In this document: piece by piece, positions 14,148-61,030 of the stretch | Layout of the letters: each line of letters starts with the position of its first letter | How positions within the stretch are numbered: position 1 is the stretch's first letter | Origin: Acidimicrobiales bacterium | Lineage (GTDB): Bacteria > Actinomycetota > Acidimicrobiia > Acidimicrobiales > CATQHL01 | Reading direction: 5' to 3' | Assembly (NCBI GenBank): GCA_965221525.1 | Contig: CBDCSG010000008.1 | Span: 775,857 to 839,856, forward strand | Length of the DNA stretch: 64,000 nt | Notes under the pieces: generated by a model | Databases searched by the model: none | Told to the model about the DNA's origin: nothing | Seen by the model: the letters and a program-made list of their open reading frames with translations, nothing else | Position numbers and translations under genes: made by a program

Positions 14148-14236
14148 GTGACCGCCGGGGCGCACGACGGCAGTGCCTGGTACTAGGAGAACCGCGCGTC
14201 ACCGGAGCCAGCACCCGCTTGAGTTCGAGGAGCCGG

Positions 14237-17134
14237 CTACTGGAGGATGTGCTGTGTCCATCGCCGGACTATTGCCGACGGGTGTTCTTGGAGGTGTTGC
14301 GCGATCGCGGATGCGGATTCCGATGTTGGCGAGCTGGCTAGGGCCAGGCCGGAGAGGAGAGCGGCGGGTAGCAGGATCCCGTCCTTGCGGGCCAACTCCC
14401 ACGCCTGAGCGCGGATGGCTGGGCGGGGGTCGGTGACGGCCAGCTTGCCGATTGCGCGGGCTGCCTCGTGTCGTACTTGGTGATGCGGGTCGGTGGAGAG
14501 GGCGGCGAGCAGCGGCTGCTGGTCAGGCTGCTGCCCCCAGCCCAGGAGCATCGCGGCGTCCCGTCGCTGCTCTGGTGTGCCGACGGCGAGCTTCTCCATT
14601 TCGGTGGCGGCGTCTTGGCCGTCTGGCATGCCGAACACGATTCCGAGCATGGTCTCGATGCCGCCGATGTCGGCTTCGAGGCCGATGCCCGGCTTGGATT
14701 CGGCAACTGCGGCGGTGTTCGCTGCGAGAGCGGACCGAACATCGGCGGGCAGCCTGTCAGCGTTCTGAGCCATCAGCAGGCACGCCTGTCGTTTGTCGTG
14801 GCCTGCTGCTAGGGGTTCCAACAGCAACTCAAGTACGTTGTCCCAGCGGGCGTGGTCGGGGAACTCAAGACTCATTGCTGCCAGCCAAAGGGCGGCGTCG
14901 ATTCTGTCGCCGCCGTAGGTTCCGTTGCGGGCCGCGGCCAGGATCTCGTCTGCGGCGTCGGCGAGCCGGGCGATGACGGATACGGCGTCGCTTTGGTCGA
15001 GCGCTGGTAGGTCGGCTACCGCCCCGATGGCCTGTAGTTCTCCGGCGACGGCGCGGCTGGTTGCCTCAGTGTCGGCTCCCAGGTAGCGGTTGTCGGCCAG
15101 CCAGCCGAGCGCGGCGACCGCGATCGAGCCGCGTTGCTCTCGTGCCTTCTCCCAGAGCGCATCCCGGGCGTCTTGATCGACCTTGCCGTAGTCGAGCGTG
15201 CCGATGGCTGTGCAGACCTGCTGGGTCGTCAGGGACGGCGGCGGGTCGGGCAGTTCGGCGATAAGGCGGGCGGCCGCGGTGTGGGCGCGGTTGCCGGCGG
15301 CGGGAAGCAGGCCGGTGACCGCCTCCAAGGCGGCCATCGGCACAGTCCGCGACGGCATCAACCGCTCGGTCAGCTCGACCGGATCTTGCACCAGCTCGGT
15401 GACCCAACAAGCGAACTCGGTGGCCGACGCCTCTTCGATGAGGTCGCCGGCCCCGGCCAGCGCCGCGAAATTGGCATCGCAGGTGGTGTGCGTCCAACCC
15501 GCCGAAGGGATGTCGTTCACTGCCTCGGCGACCGGCCCGAGCGGGCCGTCATAGCGGAGCCGGCGGATCGCCTTCGCCAGCGACTTGTGGTCGCCGCTTC
15601 GGCGGAGGGCTCTGAGGCCCTCGACCAGTTCCAGAGTCTTGTTGGCGGCGTCGGAGGCGTCCACGAGCCGCTGTCTGCCGTACAGGGCGCAGGCCTGCTT
15701 CCAACTGCTGTGCTCGCCAGTGATGTCGGCGCTGAACTCGGCTGCGAACAGCTCCTGTGTCCGGGGCCTCTCCCACCGGATCAGGTAACGGAGGTGGGGA
15801 TCGGCCCAAGTCTCGAACCGGGTCTTCTCCACGCGACCGAGTCCCCACGAGACGGTCTGGGCCCGCCACCAGGACACCGCCGTGTCTGACGCAGTGACCA
15901 GCTCTTTAAATCCCCGAGTCCTCTCTGCCCAGTCCGACGGGTCCGCGAGGCAGGCGGCGGCATAGAGCTGCCAGGCCGCTGCTGCGGCCAAAGCAGACGC
16001 GGTGGTGTCATCCCGGTCGCCGAGAAAGCAGCGCTGCGCGCTGATCGCATCACGTCGCGCGTCGTCGAAGTCGCCAACCTCGGTTCTGAACCGGGCCCGC
16101 TGTACGAGAACCCACCCATGGTCCACCGGCGGCAGGTCGTCATAGTCGACTAGACCGTCCAGCGTCTCCAGTGCGCGGTCGTACCGCTCCAAGCGGTGTA
16201 GGGCACACGCCAGCACCACACCGTTCGCCGCTCTCTCCTCTGGGGAGCGGGCCGCGGCGAACGCGGCCTCCAGACGTTGGATCGAATCTGTGAGTGCCCA
16301 GTCCCAGAGAGCGGCCACGAACAGCCACCCCCAGTCCTGGCCCGTGTAGGGCCGCCTCGGATCAGGTACGCTCTCGTGCTTCTCCGCGAATTGGACGAGA
16401 TCGAAGAAGCGCCCCTCTGCCAAGAGAGCAGCGCCGTCTACAGCGTCGATCTCGTCCTCCTGGTGGGCGTTGGGATTTGGCGCCAGCAACCTCGGCGCCA
16501 CCAGCGCATACCGCAGTCGCCGCGCCGGCGGAATGCCGCCGGGCAAACCGGACAGGGCGGTGCCTTCGATCACCGGGGCGACCTTCTGCTCGCAAGCCAC
16601 AGCGAACAGCTCGCCGGCGTGCTCTTCGTCGATCGTCTGGTCCGCGGGCACCAAGATCTTGCATCCCCTCCGGGCGCTGGCAACCCGGTCCGCAGTCACG
16701 TGTACCCAATAGGACATGCGCTCCTCGAGGCAGTGCAAGACCAGCAGATGTGGCAGACTGTGGGTCACCCAGTCGTCGAAGTGCCTCGCATCTGGCTCGT
16801 AGTACCACCACCCAAGAACCCGGCCGCCCTTGTCGCGTTTGCGCCTCCTGAAGCGGCTCGGCCCTGCCTTCACCTGAACTCCGACAATCAGGCCCCGATC
16901 AAAACGCCTCTCGTCGCGCGCTTGCACCAAGAGATCCGTCCCCAAGTCATGGTCCGCGTTGCGCACCGGACCCCATCCGATCGCCTCAAAGTCATCACAC
17001 ACATCGCGCAACGCCTTGCGCTCAGTCTCCTCCGACTTGCTAACGCGCACCAGAATCCTCCCCGACCCGGGACACCAACTCTGAGTCGGAGACAGGATTG
17101 TACGAGACCGGCGTGAGGACCTGCGCACGCGCAT
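14237..17134 (-). CDS. DUF4365 (PD-(D/E)xK-like) N-terminal domain fused to a long helical/HEAT-repeat region
   Basis: N-terminus DFEAIGWGPVRNADHDLGTDLLVQ...IVGVQVKAG. C-terminus DPHHQVRHEAARAIGKL and PSAIVRRW HEAT-like repeats. 965 aa. Confidence 0.6.
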   Translation of the reverse strand: MRVRRSSRRSRTILSPTQSWCPGSGRILVRVSKSEETERKALRDVCDDFEAIGWGPVRNADHDLGTDLLVQARDERRFDRGLIVGVQVKAGPSRFRRRKRDKGGRVLGWWYYEPDARHFDDWVTHSLPHLLVLHCLEERMSYWVHVTADRVASARRGCKILVPADQTIDEEHAGELFAVACEQKVAPVIEGTALSGLPGGIPPARRLRYALVAPRLLAPNPNAHQEDEIDAVDGAALLAEGRFFDLVQFAEKHESVPDPRRPYTGQDWGWLFVAALWDWALTDSIQRLEAAFAAARSPEERAANGVVLACALHRLERYDRALETLDGLVDYDDLPPVDHGWVLVQRARFRTEVGDFDDARRDAISAQRCFLGDRDDTTASALAAAAAWQLYAAACLADPSDWAERTRGFKELVTASDTAVSWWRAQTVSWGLGRVEKTRFETWADPHLRYLIRWERPRTQELFAAEFSADITGEHSSWKQACALYGRQRLVDASDAANKTLELVEGLRALRRSGDHKSLAKAIRRLRYDGPLGPVAEAVNDIPSAGWTHTTCDANFAALAGAGDLIEEASATEFACWVTELVQDPVELTERLMPSRTVPMAALEAVTGLLPAAGNRAHTAAARLIAELPDPPPSLTTQQVCTAIGTLDYGKVDQDARDALWEKAREQRGSIAVAALGWLADNRYLGADTEATSRAVAGELQAIGAVADLPALDQSDAVSVIARLADAADEILAAARNGTYGGDRIDAALWLAAMSLEFPDHARWDNVLELLLEPLAAGHDKRQACLLMAQNADRLPADVRSALAANTAAVAESKPGIGLEADIGGIETMLGIVFGMPDGQDAATEMEKLAVGTPEQRRDAAMLLGWGQQPDQQPLLAALSTDPHHQVRHEAARAIGKLAVTDPRPAIRAQAWELARKDGILLPAALLSGLALASSPTSESASAIAQHLQEHPSAIVRRWTQHILQ

Positions 17135-17352
17135 GGGCCGAGTCGCGGAGACGACAGATCCGGATGTTCTCGGTCACCGGTAGGGGATCATCGTCGGCCT
17201 CGCGTGGGCAGGGGTCCAGCGACGCCTAGTCTCGTGTGTGGTCATCATCGACCGTCGCTAGGGCCGGGGAGTTCTAGGTCGAGCGGGAGAGACTAGATGG
17301 CGATCAGGTACACCCGGCAGCCGAGGTCGAAGTGATTGCTAGGAGCAGATGA

Positions 17353-18864
17353 GTGAACGGTCGCCCTGAATCAGAAGACTTGCAGGCACTGGCGGCTGAT
17401 TGTATCGGCGCAGTCTTCGAAGTTCTTGAGACTCATCGCGTAATCCCCCGTCCGCGTCACATGCCATTCGTTCGATGGGGCAGACACTACTTGATTCGTT
17501 GGATAAGTGAGCTGGAGAGCTACATCGCCCTCGAACAGGCGATCTTATCCACATTTCCTTCATCTTTTGATCATGATCCTACACAACCGGGCCGCACAAT
17601 CGAGCAACCGCATTCTTACATATGCAGACTGATCGACGCATGTGTAGCGCTCTGCACCGCGCGAGAGGAAGCCTACTCGCAGCGATCACCATCAGTGATT
17701 GAGTGTATCCAGTCGATGCTGTTGGAGTTGGAGGCAGAGGAGCACGAGTTCGTTTGCTGTCTTGGGGTAAGTGACCTTTCGACTACTGATGGCGAGTCGG
17801 CACTCGTTGGCGATGTGCTCGTTGTTCCAGAACACTACGACGATAAAAGACAGATTATCGACCGAGTTGGCTCAAGCATAGCAGGTGCTGAAGCTGCCCA
17901 GAGGGAGAACTGGTATCTCGATCTCCCGCTCGACACAACACTCCTGTTCACGGATGTTCGAGCGCATAGTACAATGTTTGAACTCAAGTCACTGGAAGCG
18001 CAGGAAGCCTTAAGGACGTTCCTTCTGATTCTGCAACTTCTACAGCCTACTACATGTAGATCACTATTCTGGATCATTGGACCTACAAGCCGACTGAGCC
18101 GCGTAGAGCCGCTGTACTATCCGACTGATCAGTTCATTCGACTTTCTCCCGTCCGTAGGACCGCGACAGTGACTCAGTCGACGTCGACAGTCTTTTCGAC
18201 GATTGGTTCGATGCTCTCAAGTATCGAAAGACACACTTCTTGCTCTTCAGACCGCGCTGACGCCTCAGCGAGACGTCGTAGCGGGCAGATTCTGGTCACG
18301 TCGTGGCAAGTTGCACTCCGGAACTTCTCGCAATCACATGGTGAGCTATTCTGGCATCGGAATCTCGTCGATCTTACGACTGGACTAGAGGCAGCAATGT
18401 CCGATATAGATCAAGCTACTGAGAGTGTCACGTTCCGCCTTCAGACTAGAGCTGCGGCACTTCTAGCAACCGATGACGATCCTCCACGTACGATCTATCG
18501 AGATGTCGGTGTGCTTTATGGTCTCCGCTCAAGAATCGCCCATGGCTCCGACATAGATCTTCGCAAGTTCGACAAGGAAATCAAGAAGCTGTCAACTGCA
18601 TCTGATCAGTCATCGTGGCTTCGCGATTATCACCTGGCCATTGATCGGCTACGAGATCTATTGCGCCGCGCGCTCTTGGCGAGAATGTGCCTATCTATTG
18701 AGGGTCCGGACAGATGGAAGTTCGGTGAGCGGTTCGATATTGACCGACGATTGAGCGATGATCGCGTTCGCAATGAGCTACGAACAAGATGGCGCACTGT
18801 AATGCAAGATGCCGGTGCGTTGGAGGCGACCGAAGCTGCGCTCGAGCCTGATAGCAGGTACTGA
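17353..18864 (+). CDS. Hypothetical protein with C-terminal Apea-like HEPN motif
   Basis: AGGAG RBS then GTG 17353. GVLYGLRSRIAHGSD (R-S-R-I-A-H at nt 18526-18543). Distinctly A/T-richer codon usage than neighbours. Confidence 0.55.
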   Translation: MNGRPESEDLQALAADCIGAVFEVLETHRVIPRPRHMPFVRWGRHYLIRWISELESYIALEQAILSTFPSSFDHDPTQPGRTIEQPHSYICRLIDACVALCTAREEAYSQRSPSVIECIQSMLLELEAEEHEFVCCLGVSDLSTTDGESALVGDVLVVPEHYDDKRQIIDRVGSSIAGAEAAQRENWYLDLPLDTTLLFTDVRAHSTMFELKSLEAQEALRTFLLILQLLQPTTCRSLFWIIGPTSRLSRVEPLYYPTDQFIRLSPVRRTATVTQSTSTVFSTIGSMLSSIERHTSCSSDRADASARRRSGQILVTSWQVALRNFSQSHGELFWHRNLVDLTTGLEAAMSDIDQATESVTFRLQTRAAALLATDDDPPRTIYRDVGVLYGLRSRIAHGSDIDLRKFDKEIKKLSTASDQSSWLRDYHLAIDRLRDLLRRALLARMCLSIEGPDRWKFGERFDIDRRLSDDRVRNELRTRWRTVMQDAGALEATEAALEPDSRY

Positions 18865-19084
18865 ATAGTGGGTTTGCTGGCTCCAATAGTCACGACGATA
18901 CCAGCTGAGCGTAGGTCGTAGGATTCGAATCCGATGTGCCGGAGGTGCGGACATGGAGATCAGTTGGCAGAGCGTCTTCTGAACGGTATCGCTTTGATGC
19001 TCGGGCAGGCGGCAGTCTGGTAGGCGGCTTTGAGTTCTACGAGTGATTCAATGATGATCGTTGCAGAGGAGCGATGAGTTTAGT

Positions 19085-20483
19085 GGCTCTTCAGATTTGA
19101 GCGGGCACTGGGTCCGCGAGCGGCGGGGTGGGGGCCTCCAGAATCGGGTTTGACACACACCGATTCGGAGGAGGACCCCGGTGGAGGAGAACCCTACGCG
19201 CGTCTGTGAGCTGTTGGTTGGTCTGGGCGATGTGGAGGTCCTCGGCGTCGACGACAAGGCCGCCGGACCGCTGGCGTTGCACATCCGAACGCGGCGCCGG
19301 CCGGCGTGTCGGGGCTGCGGTGGGGCGGTGTGGCCCAAGGGAACTAGCCCGGTGAGCTTGGTGGACCTGCCCGCCTTCGGGCGTTCGGTGCGCCTCATCT
19401 GGCACAAGTGGCGCTGGCGCTGCCCGATGACGAGTTGTGGGATCGGTTCGTTCACCGAGATCGATGAGCAGATCGCGTCGGCGCGCGCCGCGTTGACGGC
19501 GCGAGCGGGCCGCTGGGCGACCTTGCAGGTCGGACGGGACGCCCGTCCCGTCGCCGACGTGGCCGCTGAGTTGGGCTGTGACTGGCACACGGTCAACCCG
19601 GCGGTGGTTGCCTGGGGCGAGGCGCTGCCGGCCGCCGATCGTGACCGGGTGGGCGCCGTGGAGGCTCTCGGTCTCGACGAGACCCTGTTCGGCCGTTGTG
19701 GTCCCTGGCGGCGACGCGCCTGGTGCACCTCGATCGTGGACGTCGCCAGGCCAGTTGCTCGACATTGTCCCCGGTCGCGACGCCGAAGCTCCGATCGGGT
19801 GGCTGTTGGATCAGCCCCAGGCGTGGTGCGACGGCATCAACTGGGGCGTGTTGGATCTCTCGGGGGCGTATCGGCGCAGCTTCGAGGTGGCGCTGCCTCA
19901 CGTCGGCCAGGTCGCCGATCTGTTCCATGTCATCCGCCTGGCGAATAACAGCATCGACGAGGTGCGCCGACGGGTGCAGAACGACACTCTGGCCACCGCG
20001 GCCGCAAACACGACCCGCTGTGGCGGGCGCGGCGGCTGTTGATCTCCGCCCATGGGCGTCTCAGCGAGCGTGGCGACGCCAAGCTGCGGGGCCTGCTCGC
20101 CGCCGGCGATCCCCGCGGCGAGGTCCGCCTGGCGTGGCACGCCAAAGAAACCCTCCGCGGCCTCTATGACATCGACTGCCCGCAGCTCGCCGGCGCCTAT
20201 CTCGGCGAACTCGCCGACGACCTCACCGGCACCGACTGCCCGCCCGAGCTGCGCCGCCTAGGCCGGACACTGGGCCGCTGGCACACCGCAATCATCAACT
20301 GGCACCGCGCCCGGGTCACCGACGGTCCCACCGAAGCCGTGAACAACCTCGTCAAACGCGTCAAGCGCGCCGCCGTCGGGTTCCGCCGCTTCGCCCACTA
20401 CCGCATCCGAGCGCTCCTCTACGCCGGCAAACCCAACTGGGCAATCCTCACCACCGTCACTCCCCGCTAATTTCCGAAGCGCC
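19085..20483 (+). mobile_element. ISL3-family insertion sequence (decayed)
   Basis: Imperfect terminal inverted repeats GGCTCTTCAGATTTGAG (left) and GGCGCTTCGGAAATTAG (reverse complement of right end). Contains the broken transposase. Confidence 0.65.
19181..20470 (+). pseudogene. ISL3 transposase with at least two frameshifts
   Basis: The product is split over three frames (19181-, 19578-, 20039-20470). Shifts lie near ~19740 and ~19985; GHRGRKHDPLWRARRLL is only readable after a shift. Confidence 0.8.
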
Positions 20484-20568
20484 AGTAATCGCCGCGATAG
20501 ATGCCGAGGGGCTCCGTTCTAGCGGAGTCTCAAGTCGGACCTTCGAGTAGCCGGAGTGACTTCAATCG

Positions 20569-21267
20569 TCAGTTCTCTTGCGGCAGCGACGGCGGAAGGT
20601 CACTGATGATGCGGGCGCTCTCGACCGAGACGTACACGAGCCGGCGTAGGTGACGGATCAAGTTGTAGGGCTCGTATGCCCAGGCTTCGCATTCGTTTGG
20701 GTCGTCGGTGATCCCTGATGGCTTGTCGTGCTTATGTCTGAGGCTGTCGATCGCCCACTGCAGCGGCGATCGTCCCGAGATCGTGTACTCGTGAGCGTCA
20801 TCCGGAATGCCCACGAGGCGACAGCGAGTGTTGATCTCGAGCACGCTGCGGTCCTGCGTTCGATTCGGCCCTCTGCCCCATGTGAGCTTCTCTATGCGGT
20901 AGGCGCGGGGATCGGTTGTCGGGTCGGCGGCCCCGTCGTTGTCGATTGAGCCGTCGAGATGACAATCCACCCTGTATTCGGGGACATCGTCGTAACCGAT
21001 GTGAAGGTCCATGAGCACGCGGCCCGCGGAGCGGAACGCCTCGAAGTCCGGCGCGAACGGCACCCTCGGCAGGTTCCGCTGTAGGTCGTGCTTGTACTTG
21101 TCGCGCCAGTCGGAGGCGTGCATTACGCCGTACAGATACTCCCAGATGTCGTCCTTCGTGATTTGGGGGCCATATCTGGTTTGGAATTGCTCCAAGCACC
21201 AATCTGTCACATTGTCGCCGCCATCCGCAGACGAGTCTGCCAAGCCGAAATCGAGAGTCTCGGTCAT
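20569..21267 (-). CDS. C-terminal part of the Type ISP R-M enzyme (specificity-domain portion), separated from the main ORF
   Basis: NVTDWCLEQFQTRYG...DIWEYLYGVMHASDWRDKY...NLPRVPF resembles the Type ISP C-terminal domain. ATG 21267 lies 8 nt after the TAG at 21278-21276. Confidence 0.6.
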   Translation of the reverse strand: MTETLDFGLADSSADGGDNVTDWCLEQFQTRYGPQITKDDIWEYLYGVMHASDWRDKYKHDLQRNLPRVPFAPDFEAFRSAGRVLMDLHIGYDDVPEYRVDCHLDGSIDNDGAADPTTDPRAYRIEKLTWGRGPNRTQDRSVLEINTRCRLVGIPDDAHEYTISGRSPLQWAIDSLRHKHDKPSGITDDPNECEAWAYEPYNLIRHLRRLVYVSVESARIISDLPPSLPQEN

Positions 21268-21275
21268 GACGGCGT

Positions 21276-21639
21276 CTACCCTTTTGCTCGGCTGCGGCGG
21301 ACGAACACACGCCCTGCCGGGTCCACGAGATGCAGGTCCGGGAGTTGACCTATCGCGATCGTGGCGAATGTGGTCCGAGTCGACGGACTGCTCACCATGA
21401 TCGCTTCCTCGGCGCGGCGCGGGACTGCTGGCCTGGCCCCATCGTGTGGAGATCGGGAAGTTCCGCCACTGCTAGAACGCCGAAGACCGACATGTTCGAT
21501 CGGCCGGTCACGATGATCGCCTCCGCGGGATGATTCGTGATGGCTGATTCGTTCCGGTTCCGCAGAGGTCGCTGACTCGCGAGCTGGCGAGAGTCCCGAA
21601 TACTGCCCTGTTGTTGGGAGCCGTGACCAGGATTGCGTC
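21276..21639 (-). repeat. Three tandem, diverged 116-nt units, each encoding the same ~35-aa module in a different reading frame
   Basis: Unit-initial D/E-A-I codons start at 21639, 21523 and 21407. Frame-specific stops sit at 21510-21508, 21394-21392 and 21278-21276, all exactly 116 nt apart. Confidence 0.85.
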
Positions 21640-24600
21640 GGTCGGTCGGTCGGTCGGTCGGTCGGTCGGTCGGTCGGTCGGTCGGACGGTCGGACGGACG
21701 GACGGACGGACGGACGGACGGACCTTCGTGCATAGTATTCTCATCCACTGGGGTACTCGGGAAGAGTGCTGTCGATGCTTTGCTTTGGGAGAGGATGCGG
21801 TCGTCGTCATATAGCCAAAGTGTGACGAATGGGCGGTACAACACCTTTCGGATGCGCTCAGGCGAGTACGTGATCCTGTCTTTGCGCTTGAGCGACTGTT
21901 TCAGGGTCGCTGTCCACTTGATCGAATCCAGACTGTCGTTTCGTGTTAGGAGATCAAGGCTCCTTCTGTTTTCGACGTACTCGCGTCGGGCTGCTTCATA
22001 TGCGGAGATTAGTCTTGTAAGTTTGGCTTCGAGTGCATCGCGACTGAACGCGTATACATAGGTGTCGCAACTTGTGGCGACACCGCGGGCGTTGACTCGA
22101 ACTGCGGCTGTCGCGCCGTGGTCGTCGCTGGGCAGACACACCGGTATTGGCAATTCGGCGAAGCTTCCATCTGTGACATTCACCCAGTCATGCTGGTCGT
22201 TGACCGCGACTTTCTTGAACAGATCGTTGCTAATATCTCCGAGATCGTTCAGCCATTGGAGTTTCTCATCAAGCCTTGAGTACGGCGGAACTTCGGTGTA
22301 GTGCAGAGTTGCGTTGTTGGGTCCGAGGCGTTTGGGGTCGCGGACGAGGACTGTGACCTGCACCCCGTTGCGAGAGTGCTGACCAAAGAGCTTGTCGCCC
22401 TCCATTCGATTCTCTTCTCCGGACTTCATAGCGTCACCGCGGAGGTTGATTACGTAGATGTCGCTGAACTCATCCCGCAGGGCCGCTCGCACACCGGTCA
22501 GTGACGGAGCATTCGACAGCGAGTTCGGGTGTACAAGGGCGATGATGCCGGGCTTCTCTCCGTCGTCAGTGGACTGCTGGACTCGGTCGGATGCCCACCG
22601 AAGCGCCTCGATGTAGAGGTTGCCAGCGGCGGGACCCATGCCGACCCCGGTGATCTCTCTGTGCTTCACACCGTAGGTCTCTCGTACGCGCTGTTCGATC
22701 TCGGGGTATTCGATGTTGGGGTTGTCGTCGCCTGATGACCTTTGTCCTGATGACCATGGCGGATTGGTGAGAATTACTCGGATGGGTAGCTTGTTCTGGG
22801 TCCGGGCGCGGGCGGAGTTGTCGTCGAACCCTGGGATGCTGCCTTGGCGCGCGTCGCCGCTGAAGGTATCGCCGAAGACGATGCCGCGGTATTGGCGATA
22901 GTTGGCGTCGAGTCCGCGTTCGGCGGCGGCGGCTTCGATCTTGAGGGCGGCGATGTAGTATGCGAGCAGCACGATCTCGTTGGCGTGTAGCTCGGGCGGC
23001 GCGCAGTCTTGGTGAGCACCTCCGCTGGCGCAGGCGCCCGGAGAACCGTGGCGACGGAATCCGCTGTACTTGCGGATGAGGTCGCCGTCCTCAATGAGTG
23101 GACTGCCGTCGGTTCTCGCGCCGGTGAGCAGGCGGTGTAGGAATGTGCCGGTGCCGGTAAACGGGTCGAGTATGTGGACGTTCTCGCTGGTGAGGCCGTG
23201 GCCGAAGTGTTTGCGGCAGGCTGCGTCGGCAGAGCGCAGCATAAAGTCGACGATCTCGACTGGGGTGTAGACGATTCCGAGCCGGGTGACGGTGGACTTC
23301 ATTGCGTGTGTGAAGAATCCTTCGTAGATCTGCCGGAGCAGGTCGACGGTTTCCGCTGCGCTGTGGGTACTTGCGAGCATTCCTTGCATGGTGCGGTAGC
23401 TGCGCGCGAGGGGTACGAGTAGGTCGCCGAATACGCGGTCAGCGCTGGACGCGTCGGGGTCTGTAGTGGAGGGGGCGTGGGCGTCGGCGAGCGCGTTGAG
23501 GAACCGGTTGATTGCTCGGGAGATCGGGTTGCGGGCGGCAAATTGCGCGTCGGCGAACAGGTGGTCGAACACAGGGATCGTGACGACATGGTGTGCGACC
23601 ATTTGCTGCGCTTCGGTGTGTGTGAGGTGCGTTCCGACGGCTTGGCGCATGGCGGCCACGAACTCTTCGAACGCCGCCTGGCAGGACGGCTCGGCGATCA
23701 GGGCGGCGGTCTTGCGTTCCACGCGGGCGCATACTTCGGCGGCGCGCTGTCCCCAAGTGGGCCACATCTGGCGGTCGCCGCATTCTTCGACGATCTTGGA
23801 GGCGACCGCTTCTTCGAGCCGTCTCACGACGCGAAGGCGGAGTTCATCTTGGTCGCCGAAGTCGCCGTCGGGGACGATCTCGGGGTCCTCGGGTCTCGGG
23901 GGCTGGATGATGATCGGCGAGGCAACCCGCGGGTTGTTGACCCAGTAGTCGACGCGTTCGTCGTGGCTCCGCAGAGCGCGCACCACCTCCCAGACAGCTT
24001 TGAAGTCGCTGCTGTCGAGTACTTCGGCGTCGGTCATCTCGGAGCCTTCGGGCACGATGACAGGGATGACGACGTAGCCGAAGTCCTTGCCTTCGGCTTT
24101 GCGCATGGCGCGTCCGACGGCTTGGGTCACCTGCACGGGGGAGCGGCGGGGCTCCAGGAAGACCACAGCGTCGAGCGCGGGCACGTCCACGCCTTCGGTG
24201 AACAACTGGGCGTTGCTGATCACGCGGCCCCGGGGCGGGCCTGTGGTGTCGCGACTTTGGCGTTCGAGCGCGCTGAGCGCCTCTGAGCGCGCCACGGCGC
24301 GTGTGGTGCCGTCCACGTGGTCCACGTCGAGGCCGAGGAACCGGCGGCCGGTGTTGGCTTGGCGGACATCGGAGGCGATGGCCTCCCACAGCCGGCCCTC
24401 CAGGCCCTCGTCGGCGAAGTACGCGTCCTCCGAGCACGCCTGGGAAGACCTGACCGTGTTGGTGAACGCAATCGCAGTGCGCAGATGCCGATGCGCTGCG
24501 TCGTCAGGAATCTCGCCCGCGACGGTGCCCGGAGCGCGAATCTCGCTGGTGGGTGTGGCCATGGCGTCCCAACAGCCAAGCAACTTGGTGGCGTAATCGG

Positions 24601-25963
24601 AGTCCACCTTGGCTTTGCGGGCGCGATCCGACGCTGTGATCTCGGTGACACGCTTGCCGGCGCCGTGCATCGCGGCTTCTCGCTCGTTGACCCCGACGAC
24701 CAGCACTCGATAGTCCGAGATGAGGTCACGCTCGATGGCCTCCACGAAGCTCATCTCATAGAAGACCGGCCCGAACACCGACTCGTCGTCCATCGAATAC
24801 GAATCGCCCGCCGCGCCGGGCTCCGCCGTGGCGCGTTCTTCGATCTTGCGGCGCTGCCGCTCGGTGAACACCCGCGGCGTCGCTGTCTGATACAGCCGCT
24901 TCAGTGCGGGCACGTGCTCATCGCGATGGACCATCACGAACGCCGACGCCGCCGCTTCCTTGCTCGCCGCGCCGATCCCCGTCGTGCGATGCGCCTCGTC
25001 GCAGACGACAAGCTCGAACACGACCTCGGGTGCGTGCTCCGCGAGCACCTCCGACAGCAGCGGCACCGACTGGTACGTGCAGAACCACACATGCATCGCC
25101 TCATCGGTCACCGGCGACTGCAGAGCTTCGGTGATCTGTTCCCGATTCGTGCTCGGCGGAGCGAGCAACTCAGCGAGATCCGACTTGGTGGCGCTGGCGC
25201 GCCGACCGGCAGTCACGTCGGAGCACACCGCGCCGTAGCGATGCGGCACCGACCGCTGCGCTGCCCAGACCCGCATCGTCTGGGCCATCAACGCGATCGA
25301 CGGCACCAGATACAGCACCCGCCCGCCCCGGCCGGCCTGCTGCTCAGCGGCCCACAGCGCGACCAGCGACTTGCCGGTGCCGCACGGCATGTGCACCTGC
25401 CCCCGGTCGTGCTCCTCGAAGCCCTTGGCGATCTTCTCCAGCGCCTCGACCTGGTCGCTGCGAGGTTCGGCGCGCTCGCCGAACTCCACGGCGTCAGGAT
25501 CCTCGAAGCACTCCGACCAACGCACCGGCCAGCGATCCAGCTCGTAGCCGCTGAGCACCTCGCAACGCTTGGTCGCCCTCTCGACCTTGCTCCACGACTG
25601 CGCCGTCAACCCACCGGTGCTCACCAGCAGACTGCTTGTGAACGGCTCCTTGCCCGCCTCCGCCAGGAAGCTGTCGATATCGCTGCTGGGCACCTTCGCG
25701 CCCGCCCCGTACAACTTGCACTGGATAGCGCACACCCCACCGCCAGACTCCTCCGCGACGAGGTCCGCACCCGAATCGGGGCCGTAGCCGAACCGGGCGC
25801 GGCCCGGCCAGTCCGCCCACAACCACACCCGTACGAAACGATCGCTGTACTGCGGATTCCGCTCAAACGCCGCACGCATCACCCGCTCGAAGATGCGGCC
25901 CCGCTCCTGTGGGGAGTCGCTCACTCGCTTCAGGGCCTTGAAGACTTCAGGCTCGAAGAGCAT
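21392..25963 (-). CDS. Type ISP restriction-modification enzyme (Mrr-like nuclease + SF2 helicase-like ATPase + N6-adenine methyltransferase), main ORF in the present repeat state
   Basis: Nuclease GADLVAEE...AIQCK. Helicase motifs HMPCGTGKS, VVCDEAHR, QTATP, QAVGRAMR. MTase motifs ILDPFTGTGTFL and NPPW. YRPF... begins the C-terminal domain. Start probably ATG 25963 (MLFEPEVF); the ORF track begins at 26104. Confidence 0.8.
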   Translation of the reverse strand: MLFEPEVFKALKRVSDSPQERGRIFERVMRAAFERNPQYSDRFVRVWLWADWPGRARFGYGPDSGADLVAEESGGGVCAIQCKLYGAGAKVPSSDIDSFLAEAGKEPFTSSLLVSTGGLTAQSWSKVERATKRCEVLSGYELDRWPVRWSECFEDPDAVEFGERAEPRSDQVEALEKIAKGFEEHDRGQVHMPCGTGKSLVALWAAEQQAGRGGRVLYLVPSIALMAQTMRVWAAQRSVPHRYGAVCSDVTAGRRASATKSDLAELLAPPSTNREQITEALQSPVTDEAMHVWFCTYQSVPLLSEVLAEHAPEVVFELVVCDEAHRTTGIGAASKEAAASAFVMVHRDEHVPALKRLYQTATPRVFTERQRRKIEERATAEPGAAGDSYSMDDESVFGPVFYEMSFVEAIERDLISDYRVLVVGVNEREAAMHGAGKRVTEITASDRARKAKVDSDYATKLLGCWDAMATPTSEIRAPGTVAGEIPDDAAHRHLRTAIAFTNTVRSSQACSEDAYFADEGLEGRLWEAIASDVRQANTGRRFLGLDVDHVDGTTRAVARSEALSALERQSRDTTGPPRGRVISNAQLFTEGVDVPALDAVVFLEPRRSPVQVTQAVGRAMRKAEGKDFGYVVIPVIVPEGSEMTDAEVLDSSDFKAVWEVVRALRSHDERVDYWVNNPRVASPIIIQPPRPEDPEIVPDGDFGDQDELRLRVVRRLEEAVASKIVEECGDRQMWPTWGQRAAEVCARVERKTAALIAEPSCQAAFEEFVAAMRQAVGTHLTHTEAQQMVAHHVVTIPVFDHLFADAQFAARNPISRAINRFLNALADAHAPSTTDPDASSADRVFGDLLVPLARSYRTMQGMLASTHSAAETVDLLRQIYEGFFTHAMKSTVTRLGIVYTPVEIVDFMLRSADAACRKHFGHGLTSENVHILDPFTGTGTFLHRLLTGARTDGSPLIEDGDLIRKYSGFRRHGSPGACASGGAHQDCAPPELHANEIVLLAYYIAALKIEAAAAERGLDANYRQYRGIVFGDTFSGDARQGSIPGFDDNSARARTQNKLPIRVILTNPPWSSGQRSSGDDNPNIEYPEIEQRVRETYGVKHREITGVGMGPAAGNLYIEALRWASDRVQQSTDDGEKPGIIALVHPNSLSNAPSLTGVRAALRDEFSDIYVINLRGDAMKSGEENRMEGDKLFGQHSRNGVQVTVLVRDPKRLGPNNATLHYTEVPPYSRLDEKLQWLNDLGDISNDLFKKVAVNDQHDWVNVTDGSFAELPIPVCLPSDDHGATAAVRVNARGVATSCDTYVYAFSRDALEAKLTRLISAYEAARREYVENRRSLDLLTRNDSLDSIKWTATLKQSLKRKDRITYSPERIRKVLYRPFVTLWLYDDDRILSQSKASTALFPSTPVDENTMHEGPSVRPSVRPSDRPTDRPTDRPTDRPTDRRNPGHGSQQQGSIRDSRQLASQRPLRNRNESAITNHPAEAIIVTGRSNMSVFGVLAVAELPDLHTMGPGQQSRAAPRKRSW
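21637..21720. repeat. Tetranucleotide microsatellite (GTCG)12-GACG-GTCG-(GACG)7, 21 units
   Basis: Direct count in the sequence, 84 nt. Translated in the main ORF as PSVRPSVRPSDRPTDRPTDRPTDRPTD. Confidence 0.95.
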
Positions 25964-26203
25964 CCCCTGAGCCGGCTGCCCGCCCGCGCCTTCGGTCGTC
26001 GTGTGCACCGCTACCACTGTCCGCCTTCTCGCTCTGCCCCGATGTTCAAGATCTCGGAGTCTCACCGTGCCCTGGTGGTTGCCGGATTCCTGTCGGGCAC
26101 GCAACGGTAGCAGCGCGGTTGACCTGGGACCCGTAGGAGCGACCGAGACGACGGGGGCCGGTAAGCGGAAAGCGCGCTGCCGCCCACCGGCCCACTCAGG
26201 AGA

Positions 26204-27460
26204 CTAGGGGGCCCTCGGTGTCGTGATTTGGTAGTTCGCAGGTGCGTGACTCGGGCTTGGGCAGAAGGTTCGAAAATCACATGCCGCACAAGTTGCGTCA
26301 TCACGACAGTTGGGAGACCACGAGCCGAGAATGTCCTGACCGTCGGCTTCTGAAACGATGTCTTCCTCAATCCGCCGAACGACATCGTCGAACTTCTCGA
26401 GAGCTACTTCGACACTGTCGGAAGAAATCGGGATCACCCTGATCGCGCGACGCAGACGGTAGTCAAGCGACAATTGACTGGTCCCTTCCCCGCGCCTCCA
26501 TCGTCGAATCACGCGTTCATCAGCCGAACCCTGCGCGGGAATCACGTCTGTTGTGCCACGCTCAATCCCTTGCTTGAGCTTGACCATCTCCTCGTCGCCT
26601 GGCGACAACTCGTTGATGTAGATCAAGACCCCAGCCGCGACTTGGGGAGCGGAAGGTTGACGCCGCCGTAGCCACGCATATGTCTGGATCTGCCACTCTC
26701 CCTGTTCCCAGTAACTCTCATCGACGAGAGGCCGTCGAGTTCCCTTGTAGTCAACGATCACTTCGAACTCGCCACTTAGCTCTGGGCACAAGGTCCGGAT
26801 CTGTCGACAAATCGGATTCTCGTCTGAATCGGTCGATAGACTGACGTTGGTCAACACATCGATGACGCCGTGCACCTCGTAGTTTTCACAGCGTAGCTCT
26901 ACGGCGCTTTGGCCGACCCTTCGAGTACCGATTACCTGCTGCTCGGCATCTACAATCAGCGGAAACAGATGGGGTCCAAGTTGATTAACGGCATGCTCGA
27001 CCCGTTCGTACGCTGAGTCTCGAGCCGCCGTACTCCGAGCCTGTTTTCCTTGCCTCTGTAACGCCTGCTCGACCGTATCGGCAAATCGCCCGATGTCGTG
27101 GTCGATCCATGCAGGCGGATCCGCACCCCATGGACGTGGCGTACATGGCCAGGGAAAGCTAGGGACCTCGGCTCCTGTCGCTTGTTGATCGGACCAGAAG
27201 CGATAGGCCATCTCAAGTGTTCCGTGCAAGAACTCCCCGAACCACAACTGCACCGGTCGTGACGGGGGAAGTGCGCTGCCGTTGTGATAGCGGTACTGCA
27301 GCCGGCATCGAAGATATGAGAGGAGATCACCCGTGAGCGAATACGATGGAACGATGTGATCAGCAGACTTACGTTGCAGTTCCACTTCTAAATCTCCAAG
27401 AATGGTGTCGATACTGTCACAGGCGGCCTCCTGTGGTCGTGAGGCTGTTGCCACGACCAA
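26204..27460 (-). CDS. Cas4/AddB-like PD-(D/E)xK nuclease with 4-Cys (Fe-S type) cluster
   Basis: GVIDVL..., VIVDYKG (D-x-K), QIQTYAWL (QxxxY). N-terminal Cys (LRCRL) plus C-terminal CAACDFRTFC (CX2CX5C). Alternative GTG start at 27385 with a GGAG RBS, 2 nt after the helicase stop. Confidence 0.65.
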   Translation of the reverse strand: MVVATASRPQEAACDSIDTILGDLEVELQRKSADHIVPSYSLTGDLLSYLRCRLQYRYHNGSALPPSRPVQLWFGEFLHGTLEMAYRFWSDQQATGAEVPSFPWPCTPRPWGADPPAWIDHDIGRFADTVEQALQRQGKQARSTAARDSAYERVEHAVNQLGPHLFPLIVDAEQQVIGTRRVGQSAVELRCENYEVHGVIDVLTNVSLSTDSDENPICRQIRTLCPELSGEFEVIVDYKGTRRPLVDESYWEQGEWQIQTYAWLRRRQPSAPQVAAGVLIYINELSPGDEEMVKLKQGIERGTTDVIPAQGSADERVIRRWRRGEGTSQLSLDYRLRRAIRVIPISSDSVEVALEKFDDVVRRIEEDIVSEADGQDILGSWSPNCRDDATCAACDFRTFCPSPSHAPANYQITTPRAP

Positions 27461-29754
27461 GTCTCATCGCGTCGCCAACCCAGTGCAATATTCTTGGTAT
27501 TGGTATTGTAGCGCAATTGATTGTCATGGCCCACGAGCAAAAGGACACACTGGGCACGACTGAACGAGACATAGTAGAGCCGTGTTAGATCGTCAAAGGT
27601 ACGGTCCATCGCAGTGCGCTGACCTCTAAGCTCAGCACTGAGATGGGGTTCCATGTCGTCCTCGGCTACCACAACGTTCGATATGTCATCGGGGAATCGC
27701 CTGAATCGATGCATCGGATGATCGGTCCGGAACCGTGTGCCGACATCGACGATGACTAGTGGAAACTCAAGACCTTTGGCTTGATGGATCGTCATCAATT
27801 GCAGCATGTCGCGCGGAACGCTTGGCATAATGTCCTCGTCTACCTGGATTTCATCTAGAGCAATCGGAACGAGAGCATCCCTGATCAAGCTTTGCCTGCT
27901 ACGGATCAAGTGGACTCCTTGATTGTGCCTTCCGTCGTTCTGGAGAAGACGCATTCGATATGGAGAGATGCCAGCTGAACTCGCAACAATCCGAGTAATA
28001 GCTTCTAGCCAAACTTGATGTTCAGGTTCTCGCTGGAATTGAGGGAACCAAGTGACTAGAGCGAATATCAGTTCCAAGACCGGGAAGTCGGCTGGGAAGG
28101 AGCTTGCCACTCCACCCGAAGAAACGTGTTGCCACGCTCCGATGTAGCCACCGAGTCCGTTGCGTTCGGACGGTATCGGATTGGAATCAATGAACAGGTC
28201 GGCTAAATCCCGCCAGCGCGTGAGAGCGGAAAGGGCCTCATTGGTCAACTGGTTGCGTGCCCGCATCTCGTCGACGGTAGAACCCAGAGGATCGATCGCT
28301 AGGAGCAAGAGTCCCAGCAGACATCCAACGTCGTCAATTGTCCGAAGCGCTTGACCTCTCGGATTGAAGATGCGTAACCCACGCCTGTGCATCTGCTCTC
28401 TCAGCAGGCTTGGAAATCGAACGATTAGGTCGCCGTTGAAACGATTATAGTCGAGCTCATTCACTGAGTGAGATAGGAAAACGACATCGCCCAAGTCCCC
28501 ACCATCGGGGAGTACGAGTTCCTCGTCGCAATCATCAAGATGCACGGCTCGTTCTTGGGTAAGTGTCCCAAGAAACTTGGCTAGATCACGTGCGAGCAAC
28601 TGCTCATCGCCGCGAAACATACCTAGGACTGGTATCCTGCCGGATTGTCTCGTTGCGAGTACTGGAGCCTTGCCGGGCTGTACGCGGGCTGTCTGATATC
28701 CGGGATCCGCTGAGATGTGCGCGTTTACGAATTCAATGATCTCAGGACGGGAACGAAAGTTCCGGGTCAGGTCGACTCGGCGAGGTGTCCGGTCGGTGGC
28801 AGCATGACACCGTGACGCAAACTCCGTGAACAACTCAACGGATCCACCCCTAAATCTGTACATCGCCTGGTCGTCGTCGCCAACGACTGTCCCGGATAGC
28901 GCGGGATTGCGTAAGAGGTGAAAGTAGATCGCCTCCTGAAGTGGGTTGGTGTCCTGGTATTCGTCTATGAGAACAGCTCGGAGATCCGTGAGCCAATTGT
29001 CCAAGGCTTCTGCTTGAAGTCGGTTCAGGAATTGCTCTTCGAGCAGTGAGAAGTCGAAGAGGTTTGTGCGAGATGCCTCGTCCTTGTGGTCAAACAACAT
29101 GTCGACGACTGTGGCCTCTGCCTCACCTTCTGCTGCATAGCTGTCCAGATCGACACGGTCTTGGATAAGGCGCTCCAAGAGGCGCTTGGTCTCTCCTAGG
29201 GCTGCTGCTTGATTGCGAGGCGGACGGCCGTCGAAAGAGTGCCGCGCTAACAATGCGGCAATAGCGTCTCGTCTGGTGTAGTAGTGGCGTGCGAATGCTC
29301 CGCGTCGAAGAATCAGGAGGCTCGTGGCTGGGTCGGTGACGCCGGGCGGAGTCGTGCCGAGTTCGCGGAATTCTGTAAGCACGCTATGGATGGTGCTATC
29401 CAAGGTGTCGATTCTGCACCTGTTCAAGTCGACATGATCAAGATCATGCTGCTGAGAAAGCTCCTTATGCAAGGTGCCGCCCCAATCCAACCAGCGGCTG
29501 CGGAGTTCACGAGCGGCTCTCCGCGTGAACGTTGTCATCAGAATGCTCTCAGGTAGGAGATTGTCGACGTAGACGAAGTGAAGGGCTCTCAGTACAAGGA
29601 CACTCGTCTTGCCCGACCCCGGCCCCGCCACGAGATGAAGAATCGGATCAAGCCCCTGCGTGATCGCCTCAGCCTGGGCCCGGTTCCCTGGATCCCGAAG
29701 ATTGCGCCCTAGAGTCTCGTCAATGAGCGCGAGGAAGTCGATACTACTAATCAT
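27388..29754 (-). CDS. UvrD/Rep-family SF1 helicase
   Basis: AGPGSGKTS, TFTRRAAREL, VLIDEYQDTNP, VGDDDQAMYRFRGG, TIHQAKGLEFPLV, YYVSFSRAQ. Confidence 0.8.
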   Translation of the reverse strand: MISSIDFLALIDETLGRNLRDPGNRAQAEAITQGLDPILHLVAGPGSGKTSVLVLRALHFVYVDNLLPESILMTTFTRRAARELRSRWLDWGGTLHKELSQQHDLDHVDLNRCRIDTLDSTIHSVLTEFRELGTTPPGVTDPATSLLILRRGAFARHYYTRRDAIAALLARHSFDGRPPRNQAAALGETKRLLERLIQDRVDLDSYAAEGEAEATVVDMLFDHKDEASRTNLFDFSLLEEQFLNRLQAEALDNWLTDLRAVLIDEYQDTNPLQEAIYFHLLRNPALSGTVVGDDDQAMYRFRGGSVELFTEFASRCHAATDRTPRRVDLTRNFRSRPEIIEFVNAHISADPGYQTARVQPGKAPVLATRQSGRIPVLGMFRGDEQLLARDLAKFLGTLTQERAVHLDDCDEELVLPDGGDLGDVVFLSHSVNELDYNRFNGDLIVRFPSLLREQMHRRGLRIFNPRGQALRTIDDVGCLLGLLLLAIDPLGSTVDEMRARNQLTNEALSALTRWRDLADLFIDSNPIPSERNGLGGYIGAWQHVSSGGVASSFPADFPVLELIFALVTWFPQFQREPEHQVWLEAITRIVASSAGISPYRMRLLQNDGRHNQGVHLIRSRQSLIRDALVPIALDEIQVDEDIMPSVPRDMLQLMTIHQAKGLEFPLVIVDVGTRFRTDHPMHRFRRFPDDISNVVVAEDDMEPHLSAELRGQRTAMDRTFDDLTRLYYVSFSRAQCVLLLVGHDNQLRYNTNTKNIALGWRRDETWSWQQPHDHRRPPVTVSTPFLEI

Positions 29755-31989: not shown

Positions 31990-32162
31990 TGGGGTGGTGG
32001 CGCCGAGACGGTCGGCATGTCGGTGAGCTTCGACTTAGAGTCGTCCTGGGCCATCGTCAGCAGGAATCGTCGGTCCACCTCCGAGAGCGTCTTCCGGGTG
32101 GGGGCGAAGGCCATCCGGCCGATACGCCACTCGCGGATCTCCTCGACGTCGCCACTTTGCAT
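31990..32162 (-). pseudogene. Fragment of an HTH-containing regulator/ATPase gene
   Basis: TLSEVDRRFLLTMAQDDSKSKLTD matches the fuller fragment at 39214-39480. Confidence 0.45.
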
Positions 32163-39213: not shown

Positions 39214-39480
39214 TCAGCACCGGGCGGCGTGGTGGGCGAGGGTGATGCGGCCCCAGCCTGTGGGGAGGATCATGCCGGCGCGCAGGAGTCGTTGCCGGTA
39301 GACGCCGGAATACCCGGTAGCGATGCCGAGGCGGTCGGCGATGTCGGTGAGCTTCGAGTCGGTGTCGTCCTGAGCCATCGCCAGCAGGAATCGTCGGTCC
39401 ACCTCCGAGAGCGTCCTCCAGGTGGGGGGCGAAGACCATCCGGCCGCTGCGCCGCTCGCGGATCTCCTCGATGTCGCCAC
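39214..39480 (-). pseudogene. C-terminal HTH fragment of a regulator/ATPase gene
   Basis: TLSEVDRRFLLAMAQDDTDSKLTDIADRLGIATGYSGVYRQRLLRAGMI. The upstream part is in another frame. Confidence 0.45.
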
Positions 39481-39850
39481 TCTGCTTGTCGTCGACGGTG
39501 ATCAGCAGGCCCGTCTCGTGCTCGGCGAGCGCGTCGGCGGGATCGGGCAGGGCTCCCCTGTGGCCGTTTGTGGGCTTTAGGAGTTTTGTGAGCTTTAGTC
39601 GTTTTGAAGTCTTTAGTAGTTCGGCTCCGGACTCGCCCGTGGGTCCGTCACGATCAGCGGCAACTCAGCGGCTGAGCGCAGTGGGTGGGTTCGGGGACCG
39701 TCCACCGGTCTGATGCGATCACACGAGGTAGCGCGCCTCGCCGGGCCGGGGAACCCCACCGAGCACCAGGTTCGTCCCGTACCCGGATGGAACCCTCTTC
39801 GCCTGCGCCCGCAAGGCGCTCGCGCCGGCGAGCGGTCTACAGGAGGAAGA

Positions 39851-51874: not shown

Positions 51875-51949
51875 GTACGTGAGTCTTGCGCGCCCGTGAG
51901 ACACTCGCCGTCGCCCGTGCCGACCGCTGCCCGGTCTCGCGGCGCTGGG

Positions 51950-60934: not shown

Positions 60935-61030
60935 CTTCGCCGGGATGACAGTGGGGGGGATGACGGTGGGGGGATGACGGTAGGGGGATGACGGTAGGGG
61001 GATGACGGTAGGGGGATGACGGTAGGGGGA
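60935..61030. repeat. Tandem repeat, ~6 copies of a 14-bp unit GGGGGATGACGGTA
   Basis: Direct reading. Divergent intergenic region between the helicase and lhgO-like genes. Confidence 0.9.

Follow-up and report, generated by a model that had tools for sequence, protein, structure and literature searches.

Candidate frame-selected cassettes in a split Type ISP restriction-modification enzyme of an Acidimicrobiales bacterium

A split Type ISP gene with a tetranucleotide tract and three cassettes

We analysed a 64-kb stretch of the genome of an Acidimicrobiales bacterium (contig CBDCSG010000008.1 of assembly GCA_965221525.1, positions 775,857 to 839,856), below called the window. It contains a gene encoding a restriction-modification enzyme of the Type ISP family. 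A tetranucleotide tract lies inside this gene and is followed by three homologous coding modules, below called cassettes, one in each reading frame, and then by a separate open reading frame (ORF) encoding 232 amino acids. The features are listed in Table 1.

In its present reading state the main ORF encodes an Mrr-type nuclease (Pfam Mrr_cat_2, 2.8e-24), a helicase-like ATPase of superfamily 2 (SF2; ResIII, 8.5e-17; DEAD, 9.5e-9; Helicase_C, 1.8e-6), a coupler (ISP_coupler, 2.4e-19), an N6-adenine methyltransferase and the N-terminal part of the target recognition domain (TRD), in this order. It then continues through the stretch encoded by the repeat, the first cassette read out of frame, and the second cassette. 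The methyltransferase match is marginal (N6_Mtase, 2.9e-4, 20.7 bits at a cutoff of 20.4). The PADLOC REase_MTase models cover the ORF over its full length (REase_MTase_IIG, 8e-303; other, 1.7e-210). The nuclease motif DLVAE...AIQCK lines up with DLVAE...AIQAK of LlaBIII, and D...QxK, presumably the Mrr motif, is taken here to contain the catalytic residues. As the motif looks intact, restriction activity has probably been retained.

The Type_ISP_C profile (Pfam) is divided between the main ORF, a cassette and the 232-aa ORF, which match positions 4-112, 114-150 and 167-332, respectively. The first, constant part includes YRPF and a stretch that aligns with recognition Loop V of LlaGI (residues 1324-1331; Kulkarni et al. 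2016, PMC4872093). Being encoded upstream of the repeat, this part is identical in all reading states. The 232-aa ORF encodes what is left of the core helices together with the "guide" subdomain, which takes no part in sequence reading, and aligns to LlaGI chain positions 1230-1401. When the pieces are joined, the resulting chimera matches positions 4-332 of the profile in one stretch, with 232-238 bits. Typical properties of Type ISP enzymes are an asymmetric target, m6A methylation of one strand and cleavage by translocation and collision. Type ISP enzymes are single polypeptides, whereas here the TRD is split over the 1570-aa and the 232-aa ORFs, with stop codons in all three frames between them. 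All domains of the family are present, and the window enzyme is a split derivative of the family rather than a canonical member.

A recount of the tract gave 21 units inside the Type ISP ORF, in agreement with a preliminary description of the window. Tandem Repeats Finder (TRF) calls it at 21637-21721, with period 4 and 21.2 copies, and it is the sole repeat with a period of at most 5 in the window. As in contingency loci based on simple sequence repeats (SSRs), the tract is long and intragenic, and its unit is not a multiple of three. Whichever frame is read, it encodes a stop-free (PSVR)/(PTDR) peptide. It sits in a loop between the residues LFP and the first strand of the cassette; the tract peptide and the junk read-through that follows it fall where LlaGI and LlaBIII have a short variable linker.

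On the minus strand the cassettes begin at 21639, 21523 and 21407, in three different frames and spaced by exactly 116 nt, and encode DAILVTAPNNRAVFGTLASSRVSDLCGTGTNQPSRIIPRRRSS, EAIIVTGRSNMSVFGVLAVAELPDLHTMGPGQQSRAAPRKRSW and EAIMVSSPSTRTTFATIAIGQLPDLHLVDPAGRVFVRRSRAKG, respectively, each ending at a stop. No frame is interrupted between the tract and its own stop codon (TGA 21510-21508, TGA 21394-21392 and TAG 21278-21276). Re-reading of the frames reproduced all these starts, stops, spacings and open frames as first described, and the accompanying arithmetic, by which 20, 21 and 22 units place cassettes 1, 2 and 3 in frame, holds as well. Cassette 1 is generally in frame at unit counts equal to 2 mod 3; at present, with 21 units, the frame of cassette 2 is read. 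The linker read instead of cassette 1 in the present state has no stops, and therefore the ribosome can reach cassette 2. The 232-aa ORF begins with ATG 21267, as had been noted, 8 nt past the stop of cassette 3 and 125 and 241 nt past the stops of cassettes 2 and 1.

Within the window alone, the similarity of the cassettes is modest. Their pairwise nucleotide identities are 55%, 42% and 49%, which agrees with the "roughly half" given earlier for cassettes 2 and 3, and the LPDLH codons of these two do differ synonymously. At the amino acid level 20, 11 and 13 of 43 positions are identical in the own frames, compared to 7-10 of 42 in shifted frames. Scanning all six frames of the window with a module profile built mostly from relatives gave the scores listed in Table 1, and the next best match had 8.3 bits. 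This excludes a chance likeness of the three units (60-75 bits for the cassettes versus at most 8.3 bits elsewhere).

Table 1. Features of the window. The bit scores are those of the module profile.
Feature	Position	Strand	Description
Main Type ISP ORF, present reading state	21392..26104	-	1570 aa
Constant N-terminal TRD part	21737..22099	-	Type_ISP_C positions 4-112; ORF residues 1336-1456
Hypermutable tetranucleotide tract	21637..21720	-	21 units, in gene sense (CCGT)7-CCGA-CCGT-(CCGA)12
Cassette 1, type A	21508..21639	-	43 codons + TGA; Loop VI version SDLCGTGTNQPSR; 72.6 bits
Cassette 1 stretch now read out of frame	21524..21636	-	linker RNPGHGSQQQGSIRDSRQLASQRPLRNRNESAITNHPA
Cassette 2, type D	21392..21523	-	43 codons + TGA; Loop VI version PDLHTMGPGQQSR; 74.9 bits
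Cassette 3, type B	21276..21407	-	43 codons + TAG; Loop VI version PDLHLVDPAGR; 60.2 bits
Separate ORF, 232 aa	20569..21267	-	rest of TRD; Type_ISP_C positions 167-332, 2.1e-41
ISL3-family transposase remnant	19181-20470	+	three frames: zinc ribbon and helix-turn-helix; DDE 25-107; DDE 124-239
PDC-S19/DUF3644 protein	12846-14147	+	
DUF4365+HEAT protein	14237-17134	-	
PD-(D/E)XK/Cas4-like nuclease	26204-27460	-	
UvrD/GajB-like helicase	27388-29754	-	
DpdA-like DUF6884+TGT protein	29747-31492	-	

Architecture, selection and natural variation in related loci

The best 120 homologues of the main ORF are 43-87% identical to it and come mostly from metagenome-assembled genomes (MAGs) of Acidimicrobiia. 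Most of them have 1400-1540 amino acids, and nearly all that reach the TRD region stop at the same place. Past the LFP residues, their tails contain repeat-like sequences of low complexity (GGGG, PPPP, ERERER, PSVRPTDR, SGAER) followed by one recognisable module; in the longer tails, earlier modules are read through out of frame. The DNA of 80 related loci (L001-L080) was collected and, together with the window, formed a set of 81 loci whose three forward frames were searched with the module profile. Modules were found in 79 loci, with 3, 5 and 7 modules in 21, 34 and 11 loci, respectively. The common grammar is an SSR, two modules, an SSR, two modules, an SSR and three modules, giving three, five or seven cassettes. 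The window, with one SSR and three modules, is the simplest form. Thus the combination of a repeat with modules in several frames, which the preliminary description had proposed to look for in relatives, is recurrent.

Every module group is preceded by an SSR whose unit is never a multiple of three: there are 103 mono-, 35 di-, 19 tetra-, 2 penta- and 2 heptanucleotide repeats. G/C runs are 9-21 nt long, (GA) and (CA) repeats have 8-25 units, and tetranucleotide repeats have up to 32 units (43 in L081, the closest relative of the window). At the very site of the window tract, related loci carry G/C runs, (GA)n, or repeats of 4, 5 or 7 nt. The spacing of modules within a group ranges from 104 to 128 nt in steps of 3, with the mode at 116, and equals 2 mod 3 in 196 of 200 pairs, whereas the spacing between groups is random mod 3. 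The exact 116-nt period was considered as a selected feature and ruled out, since relatives use 104-128 nt; the rule is 2 mod 3.

The frames that have to be passed are open. Of 349 modules, 339 can be followed back to the preceding SSR in their own frame without meeting a stop. For second modules this holds in 131 of 133 cases and for third modules in 61 of 64, compared to 48% and 20% in the control, the same intervals on the opposite strand. In loci with several SSRs, the pass-through frame leading from one SSR to the next has no stop in 59 of 60 cases, compared to 37 of 180 in the control. Finally, the assembled enzyme ORF terminates precisely with the stop codon of an in-frame module in 67 of 75 evaluable loci. 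Therefore every state gives an enzyme ending in one complete module. All positions are in use: the first, second and third module is in frame in 6, 8 and 4 of the three-module loci, respectively.

The 355 modules cluster into nine main types, denoted A-I; the window has types A, D and B. All types share the framework AI-V...F..LA...DL....R..PR, and the hairpin and the loop are type-specific. The order of types differs between loci. The same type occurs twice within a locus in 5 of 79 loci, compared to 53.3±3.4 expected, and none of 5000 shuffles reached the observed value. Since distinct conserved types rarely repeat within one locus, the data argue for a repertoire of cassettes and against interchangeable spare copies.

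Each cassette is under purifying selection in its own frame, as had been suggested from the window alone. The window and L001 are 90% identical upstream and are in the same state, and neither reads cassettes 1 and 3 in frame. In these two cassettes the genomes differ by 12 synonymous and 4 non-synonymous changes (P=1.1e-4), with 4 and 2 in cassette 1, and 8 and 2 in cassette 3; in shifted frames almost all changes are non-synonymous. Over the family (113 disjoint pairs of the same type), the ratio of non-synonymous to synonymous polymorphism (pN/pS) of out-of-frame modules is 0.26 in the own frame versus 1.23 and 2.18 in the shifted ones, and it is 0.19-0.31 when calculated by type for all nine types. 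Between the window and L081, the 370-nt cassette region contains no indels and is 92.2% identical, compared to 89.4% for the upstream gene and 85.7% for the 232-aa ORF.

Tract lengths and states vary in nature. The tract has 21 units in the window and 30 in L001, both of which are in state 2, whereas L081 has 43 units and is in state 3, so that its cassette 3 is in frame; the stop of the latter overlaps the ATG of the small ORF. In one cluster of proteins at least 90% identical to each other (P0012), the G-runs differ in length and the proteins end in an A-, D- or B-type cassette, that is, all three states are represented. The same cluster has in-frame length variants and two members with an H cassette replacing D. 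In another cluster (P0101), a switch between A and C cassettes is seen with a 5-nt repeat. Tract length varies between close relatives, and this changes the predicted product.

A different kind of variation was observed in one cluster with identity of at least 90%, where the second cassette is D in some members and H in others (P0147 and P0148 versus P0135 and P0146), with nearly identical flanks. Hence whole cassettes are also swapped by recombination between close strains.

The partner of the cassettes, the 232-aa ORF, is a separate gene in the relatives too. Every one of its best 120 homologues is a stand-alone protein of 224-283 amino acids, and these are 62-85% identical, better conserved than the enzymes. 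Remoter relatives, with identities of about 50% or lower, form the C-terminal portions of long fused enzymes, which fits an origin of the split within the canonical family. In about 20 related loci the ATG of the guide ORF overlaps the stop of the last cassette as ATGA, with no clear Shine-Dalgarno box. Because of this overlap and the weak Shine-Dalgarno box in the window, the expression of the guide ORF might depend on the state.

The position of the guide ORF is variable. In OZ241998.1 (361553-374234) two multi-cassette Type ISP genes (L076 and L065) stand in tandem with a single guide ORF between them, and the second gene has none of its own. This suggests that one guide protein can serve two enzymes. 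As the homologues are stand-alone and better conserved, and as two tandem enzymes share one guide, it is plausible that the guide protein acts in trans. For three genomes two loci each were fetched, of which one had no guide; in all three the other locus has a guide ORF. In L041 and L050 unrelated genes come after the cassettes instead of the guide ORF. In three loci 1.7-1.9 kb are inserted between the array and the guide ORF (L033, 3757-5613; L062, 4143-5931; L067, 4171-5911), and in L033 and L067 further cassettes lie beyond the insertion. These arrays look interrupted.

The related loci come mostly from sponge-associated Acidimicrobiia. The same architecture was observed outside Actinomycetota, in Thermodesulfobacteriota (L036, L037), Caldilineaceae (L040), Dehalococcoidia (L061) and Gammaproteobacteria (P0192). 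Some of these MAGs apparently originate from the same metagenome projects as the MAGs of sponge symbionts. These cases point to horizontal transfer or binning errors. The few loci in MAGs of Thermodesulfobacteriota, Caldilineaceae and Dehalococcoidia suggest horizontal spread of the design.

Correspondence of the cassette to Loop VI and candidate mechanism

Cassette 2 aligns to LLINISGQGDKADFATLISEYLSDMHVIGGQARNLPRF of LlaGI. The crystallised LlaGI lacks residues 2-165, and the aligned stretch is therefore numbered 1343-1380. It also aligns to PDVNLFTGGSQNLPKY of LlaBIII, including PDVN(1360)LFTGGSQ. This bears out the likeness to C-terminal domains of Type ISP enzymes that had been noted earlier. 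In LlaGI, a beta-hairpin of residues 1347-1358 is packed against Loop VI and contacts the DNA backbone, and Loop VI itself (residues 1365-1374) is one of the three recognition loops of the TRD (PMC4872093). Target position +3 is read by H1368, G1372 and Q1373 of LlaGI and by N1360 of LlaBIII. Among enzymes with known targets, residue 1368 is histidine if the base at +3 is G, asparagine if it is A, and serine if any base is accepted. Residue 1373 shows high evolutionary coupling, and Loop VI is longer in enzymes that read position +2 as well (PMC4872093).

Differences between the cassettes affect the counterparts of LlaGI residues 1368 and 1373 and the length of Loop VI. At the counterpart of 1368, types A to I carry C, H, A, H, C, N, N, K and H, respectively. 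The loop comes in two lengths, with types A, C, D, G and H having two residues more than types B, E, F and I. Accordingly, in the window Loop VI of cassette 3 is two residues shorter than those of cassettes 1 and 2.

The following mechanism may be proposed. The TRD would be made of three pieces: the constant N-terminal part on the same polypeptide as the nuclease, motor and methylase, the exchangeable cassette with the hairpin and Loop VI, and the constant C-terminal protein of 232 amino acids. The domain is split because no single downstream sequence could continue all three frames. Slipped-strand mispairing at replication would add or remove a repeat unit and thereby shift the frame. The ribosome would pass the earlier cassettes as a stop-free junk linker, translate one cassette properly and terminate at its stop codon, and the 232-aa protein would supply the rest of the TRD, so that the enzyme would always be complete, with one of three versions of Loop VI. 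Most likely, this would alter which base is recognised at +3 (for the long loops also at +2), both for methylation and for restriction. In the relatives, two or three chained repeats would provide a choice among five or seven cassettes.

It is highly probable that the locus is a selected multi-state switch among functional cassettes. That switching changes the specificity is reasonably likely, given the homology to Loop VI. Thus it is likely that we deal with a contingency locus that chooses a reading frame, instead of turning a gene on or off, and swaps the Loop VI cassette and with it the target. The broadest formulation, frame-selected cassette switching, is favoured on balance: one to three chained microsatellites would route the ribosome to one of three, five or seven cassettes, and a split enzyme would heritably cycle through up to seven specificities with no recombinase, in a design widespread and horizontally shared among sponge symbionts. 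The change of specificity, the assembly of the two polypeptides and the switching of DNA within clones are what we infer from these data.

Several observations weigh against this interpretation. The change of specificity is deduced from homology. Histidine occupies the position equivalent to 1368 in cassette 2 as well as in cassette 3 of the window, and therefore any difference between their targets must come from the rest of the loop or from its length. Prediction of the fused chimera, made with no alignment, gave a predicted local distance difference test score (pLDDT) of 34, and no structural model was used. The variation of tracts is between strains or samples, which is not the same as switching within a clone, and tract lengths in metagenome assemblies, above all those of homopolymers, may contain errors. 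A switch of specificity in an enzyme that cuts DNA would expose unmethylated sites of the own genome, and nothing in the locus explains how the cell would survive this. In the window the guide ORF has no obvious strong Shine-Dalgarno box, just a weak and distant AAGGG 11 nt upstream, and it can be translationally coupled only in state 3. Finally, an iterated profile search found no guide ORF within 2-2.5 kb past the last cassette in about 33 of 81 loci (e.g. L019, L028, L041, L050), and therefore assembly in trans must be assumed there.

Several other explanations were weighed. The preliminary description had offered two designs, a frameshift buffer and a three-state switch, with a decaying pseudogene as the alternative to both. 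The three-state switch is supported by relatives that are in different states, with 21, 30 and 43 units. The buffer stands as a description, since every frame does end in a complete module and the framework residues (AI-V, F, LA, DL, R-IPR) are common to all cassettes. As a function, with the tract being unavoidable or useful for some other reason, the cassettes being equivalent spares and slippage changing no property, it is unlikely. The window modules belong to three conserved types, and in the family at large, instead of the similar copies that a buffer predicts, there are nine sharply distinct types rarely repeated within a locus (5 of 79 loci versus 53 expected), their differences being concentrated in the loop that reads bases. 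Moreover, a costly tract should disappear instead of being buffered, yet tracts with various motifs are kept at one site in about 80 loci, even two or three per gene. As regards the pseudogene, the enzyme is indeed split, the TRD is interrupted, and an ISL3 remnant lies nearby, as expected if a 116-nt triplication had broken the gene and the remains were drifting. However, the same split, tracts and multi-frame cassettes are present in 79 of 81 loci with enzymes only 43-90% identical, the cassette region has no indels between diverged relatives, each cassette is under purifying selection in its own frame, stops are missing from precisely those frames that need to stay open, and the nuclease, motor and methylase motifs are intact. 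The comparative data rule this explanation out, and we assign it next to no probability.

One more possibility is that the tract regulates dosage or acts as an on/off switch via the downstream ORF: only the state with cassette 3 in frame would couple the 232-aa ORF, and the other states would be incomplete, and either inactive or restricted to methylation. This would agree with the ATGA overlaps and with the distances from the three stops to the guide ATG in the window. However, cassettes of all types are under equally strong selection, and genomes occur in all states. In many loci the guide ORF is 130-680 nt or more away or is not adjacent, and two tandem enzymes share one guide; hence the guide must be expressed independently. 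We consider this switch improbable, slightly more so than the buffer. The other possibility is non-heritable mixing, with slippage of RNA polymerase or the ribosome producing all three isoforms in each cell. Long homopolymers, G/C runs of 9-21 nt, dominate in the relatives, and such runs are known slippage sites. Frameshift suppression at an (AG)n tract has been described in a mod gene (preprint 10.64898/2026.04.01.715767), which also speaks for mixing. On the other hand, near-identical strains differ in the tract length at the DNA level, with a change in the predicted product, and tetra-, penta- and heptanucleotide tracts are classic substrates of slipped-strand mispairing of DNA and poor sites for slippage on RNA. 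Mixing is doubtful as the sole explanation; it is compatible with heritable frame selection and does not exclude it.

The use of several frames at a repeat has precedents. In the lic loci of Haemophilus influenzae, start codons in several frames lie upstream of a tetranucleotide repeat and create more than two states; there the frames change the protein level, not the identity of a module. The canonical Type ISP enzymes LlaGI and LlaBIII (PDB 5FFJ, 4XQK; PMC4872093) share with the window enzyme the order of the Mrr nuclease, SF2 motor, coupler, gamma N6-adenine methylase and TRD. The cassette is homologous to the LlaGI segment comprising the hairpin and Loop VI, and the 232-aa ORF corresponds to the rest of the core and the guide. 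However, LlaGI and LlaBIII each consist of a single polypeptide that contains the segment once, in frame, and has no repeat, whereas in the window the TRD is split after the equivalent of the LP(R/K)(F/Y) motif, a microsatellite precedes the hairpin, and there are three alternative copies in three frames.

The Type IIG enzyme JHP1272 / HP1353-1354 of Helicobacter pylori (Krebes et al. 2014, PMC3936762) switches its specificity by frameshift, but it has two states, with an additional C-terminal domain present or absent; there is no set of homologous cassettes, not all three frames are involved, and the repeats are not chained. C-terminal sequence switching in H. canadensis (Snyder et al. 2010, PMC2823697) and the phasevarions of Type III mod and Type I hsd genes (PMC5909438, PMC7383803) resemble the window in that slippage at an intragenic non-triplet repeat alters the frame in contingency loci. 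However, their other frames yield truncation or unrelated tails, while in the window every frame yields a selected homologous module, and the junk read-through is kept free of stops by selection. The nearest functional analogue is provided by the hsdS invertons and shufflons (e.g. SpnD39III ivr of Streptococcus pneumoniae; PMC7672463, PMC7557576, PMC9881135), with a reversible choice of TRDs in many states and up to six specificities. There a recombinase acts on inverted repeats and exchanges whole TRDs, whereas here the reading frame would exchange a segment of about 40 residues. The locus has no such arrangement of a recombinase and inverted repeats: the cassettes are contiguous, in one orientation, with only short overlapping ORFs between them, and the sole transposase near them is the broken ISL3.

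Homologous selected cassettes in all three frames are absent from these precedents, and so are chained repeats. No description of the frame-selected design was found in the literature searched, including those parts of a 2025 review reached by a term search; this coverage is incomplete, and an earlier description is possible. Frame-selected cassettes are probably a previously undescribed way to change the recognition by a restriction enzyme.

If this interpretation is correct, the role of a microsatellite is not limited to turning a gene on and off, and homologous modules in three frames together with chained repeats form a compact multi-state selector that needs no recombinase. The nine interchangeable Loop VI cassettes on otherwise constant enzymes would be a natural experiment that could add to the partial recognition code known for Type ISP and Type IIG enzymes and help to engineer new specificities, and the TRD could be split into two polypeptides at a defined point. 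Such genes are currently annotated as truncated helicases and small hypothetical proteins, and the out-of-frame cassettes are invisible to gene callers. Ecologically, the design would point to intense and fast-changing pressure from phages or mobile DNA, or to epigenetic bet-hedging, in sponge symbionts.

Neighbouring genes and other repeats

The locus lies in a stretch of lower GC content, at about 16-32 kb of the window (0.56-0.63 versus 0.65-0.75 around it). The region 12846-31492 looks like a defence island (Table 1). Its origin at a tRNA gene serving as an integration site was considered and rejected, as there are no tRNA genes in the window. The dead ISL3 element mentioned in the preliminary description is real; it is split over three frames and is separated from the end of the 232-aa ORF by 100 nt.

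The window also contains a direct repeat of about 0.9 kb (32017-32929 and 39341-40253), with copies 89-98% identical and 7.3 kb apart. Each copy holds three AT-rich 18-nt iterons similar to GCTTTAGGAGTTTTGTGA amid GC-rich DNA. This could be a duplicated module resembling those for replication or partition, or the ends of an inserted element. Tandem repeats with longer periods were observed at 49213-49414 (45/96 nt), 51939-52231 (24/69/93 nt), 55184-55403 (41 nt, 5.4 copies) and 60942-61030 (14 nt, 6.3 copies).

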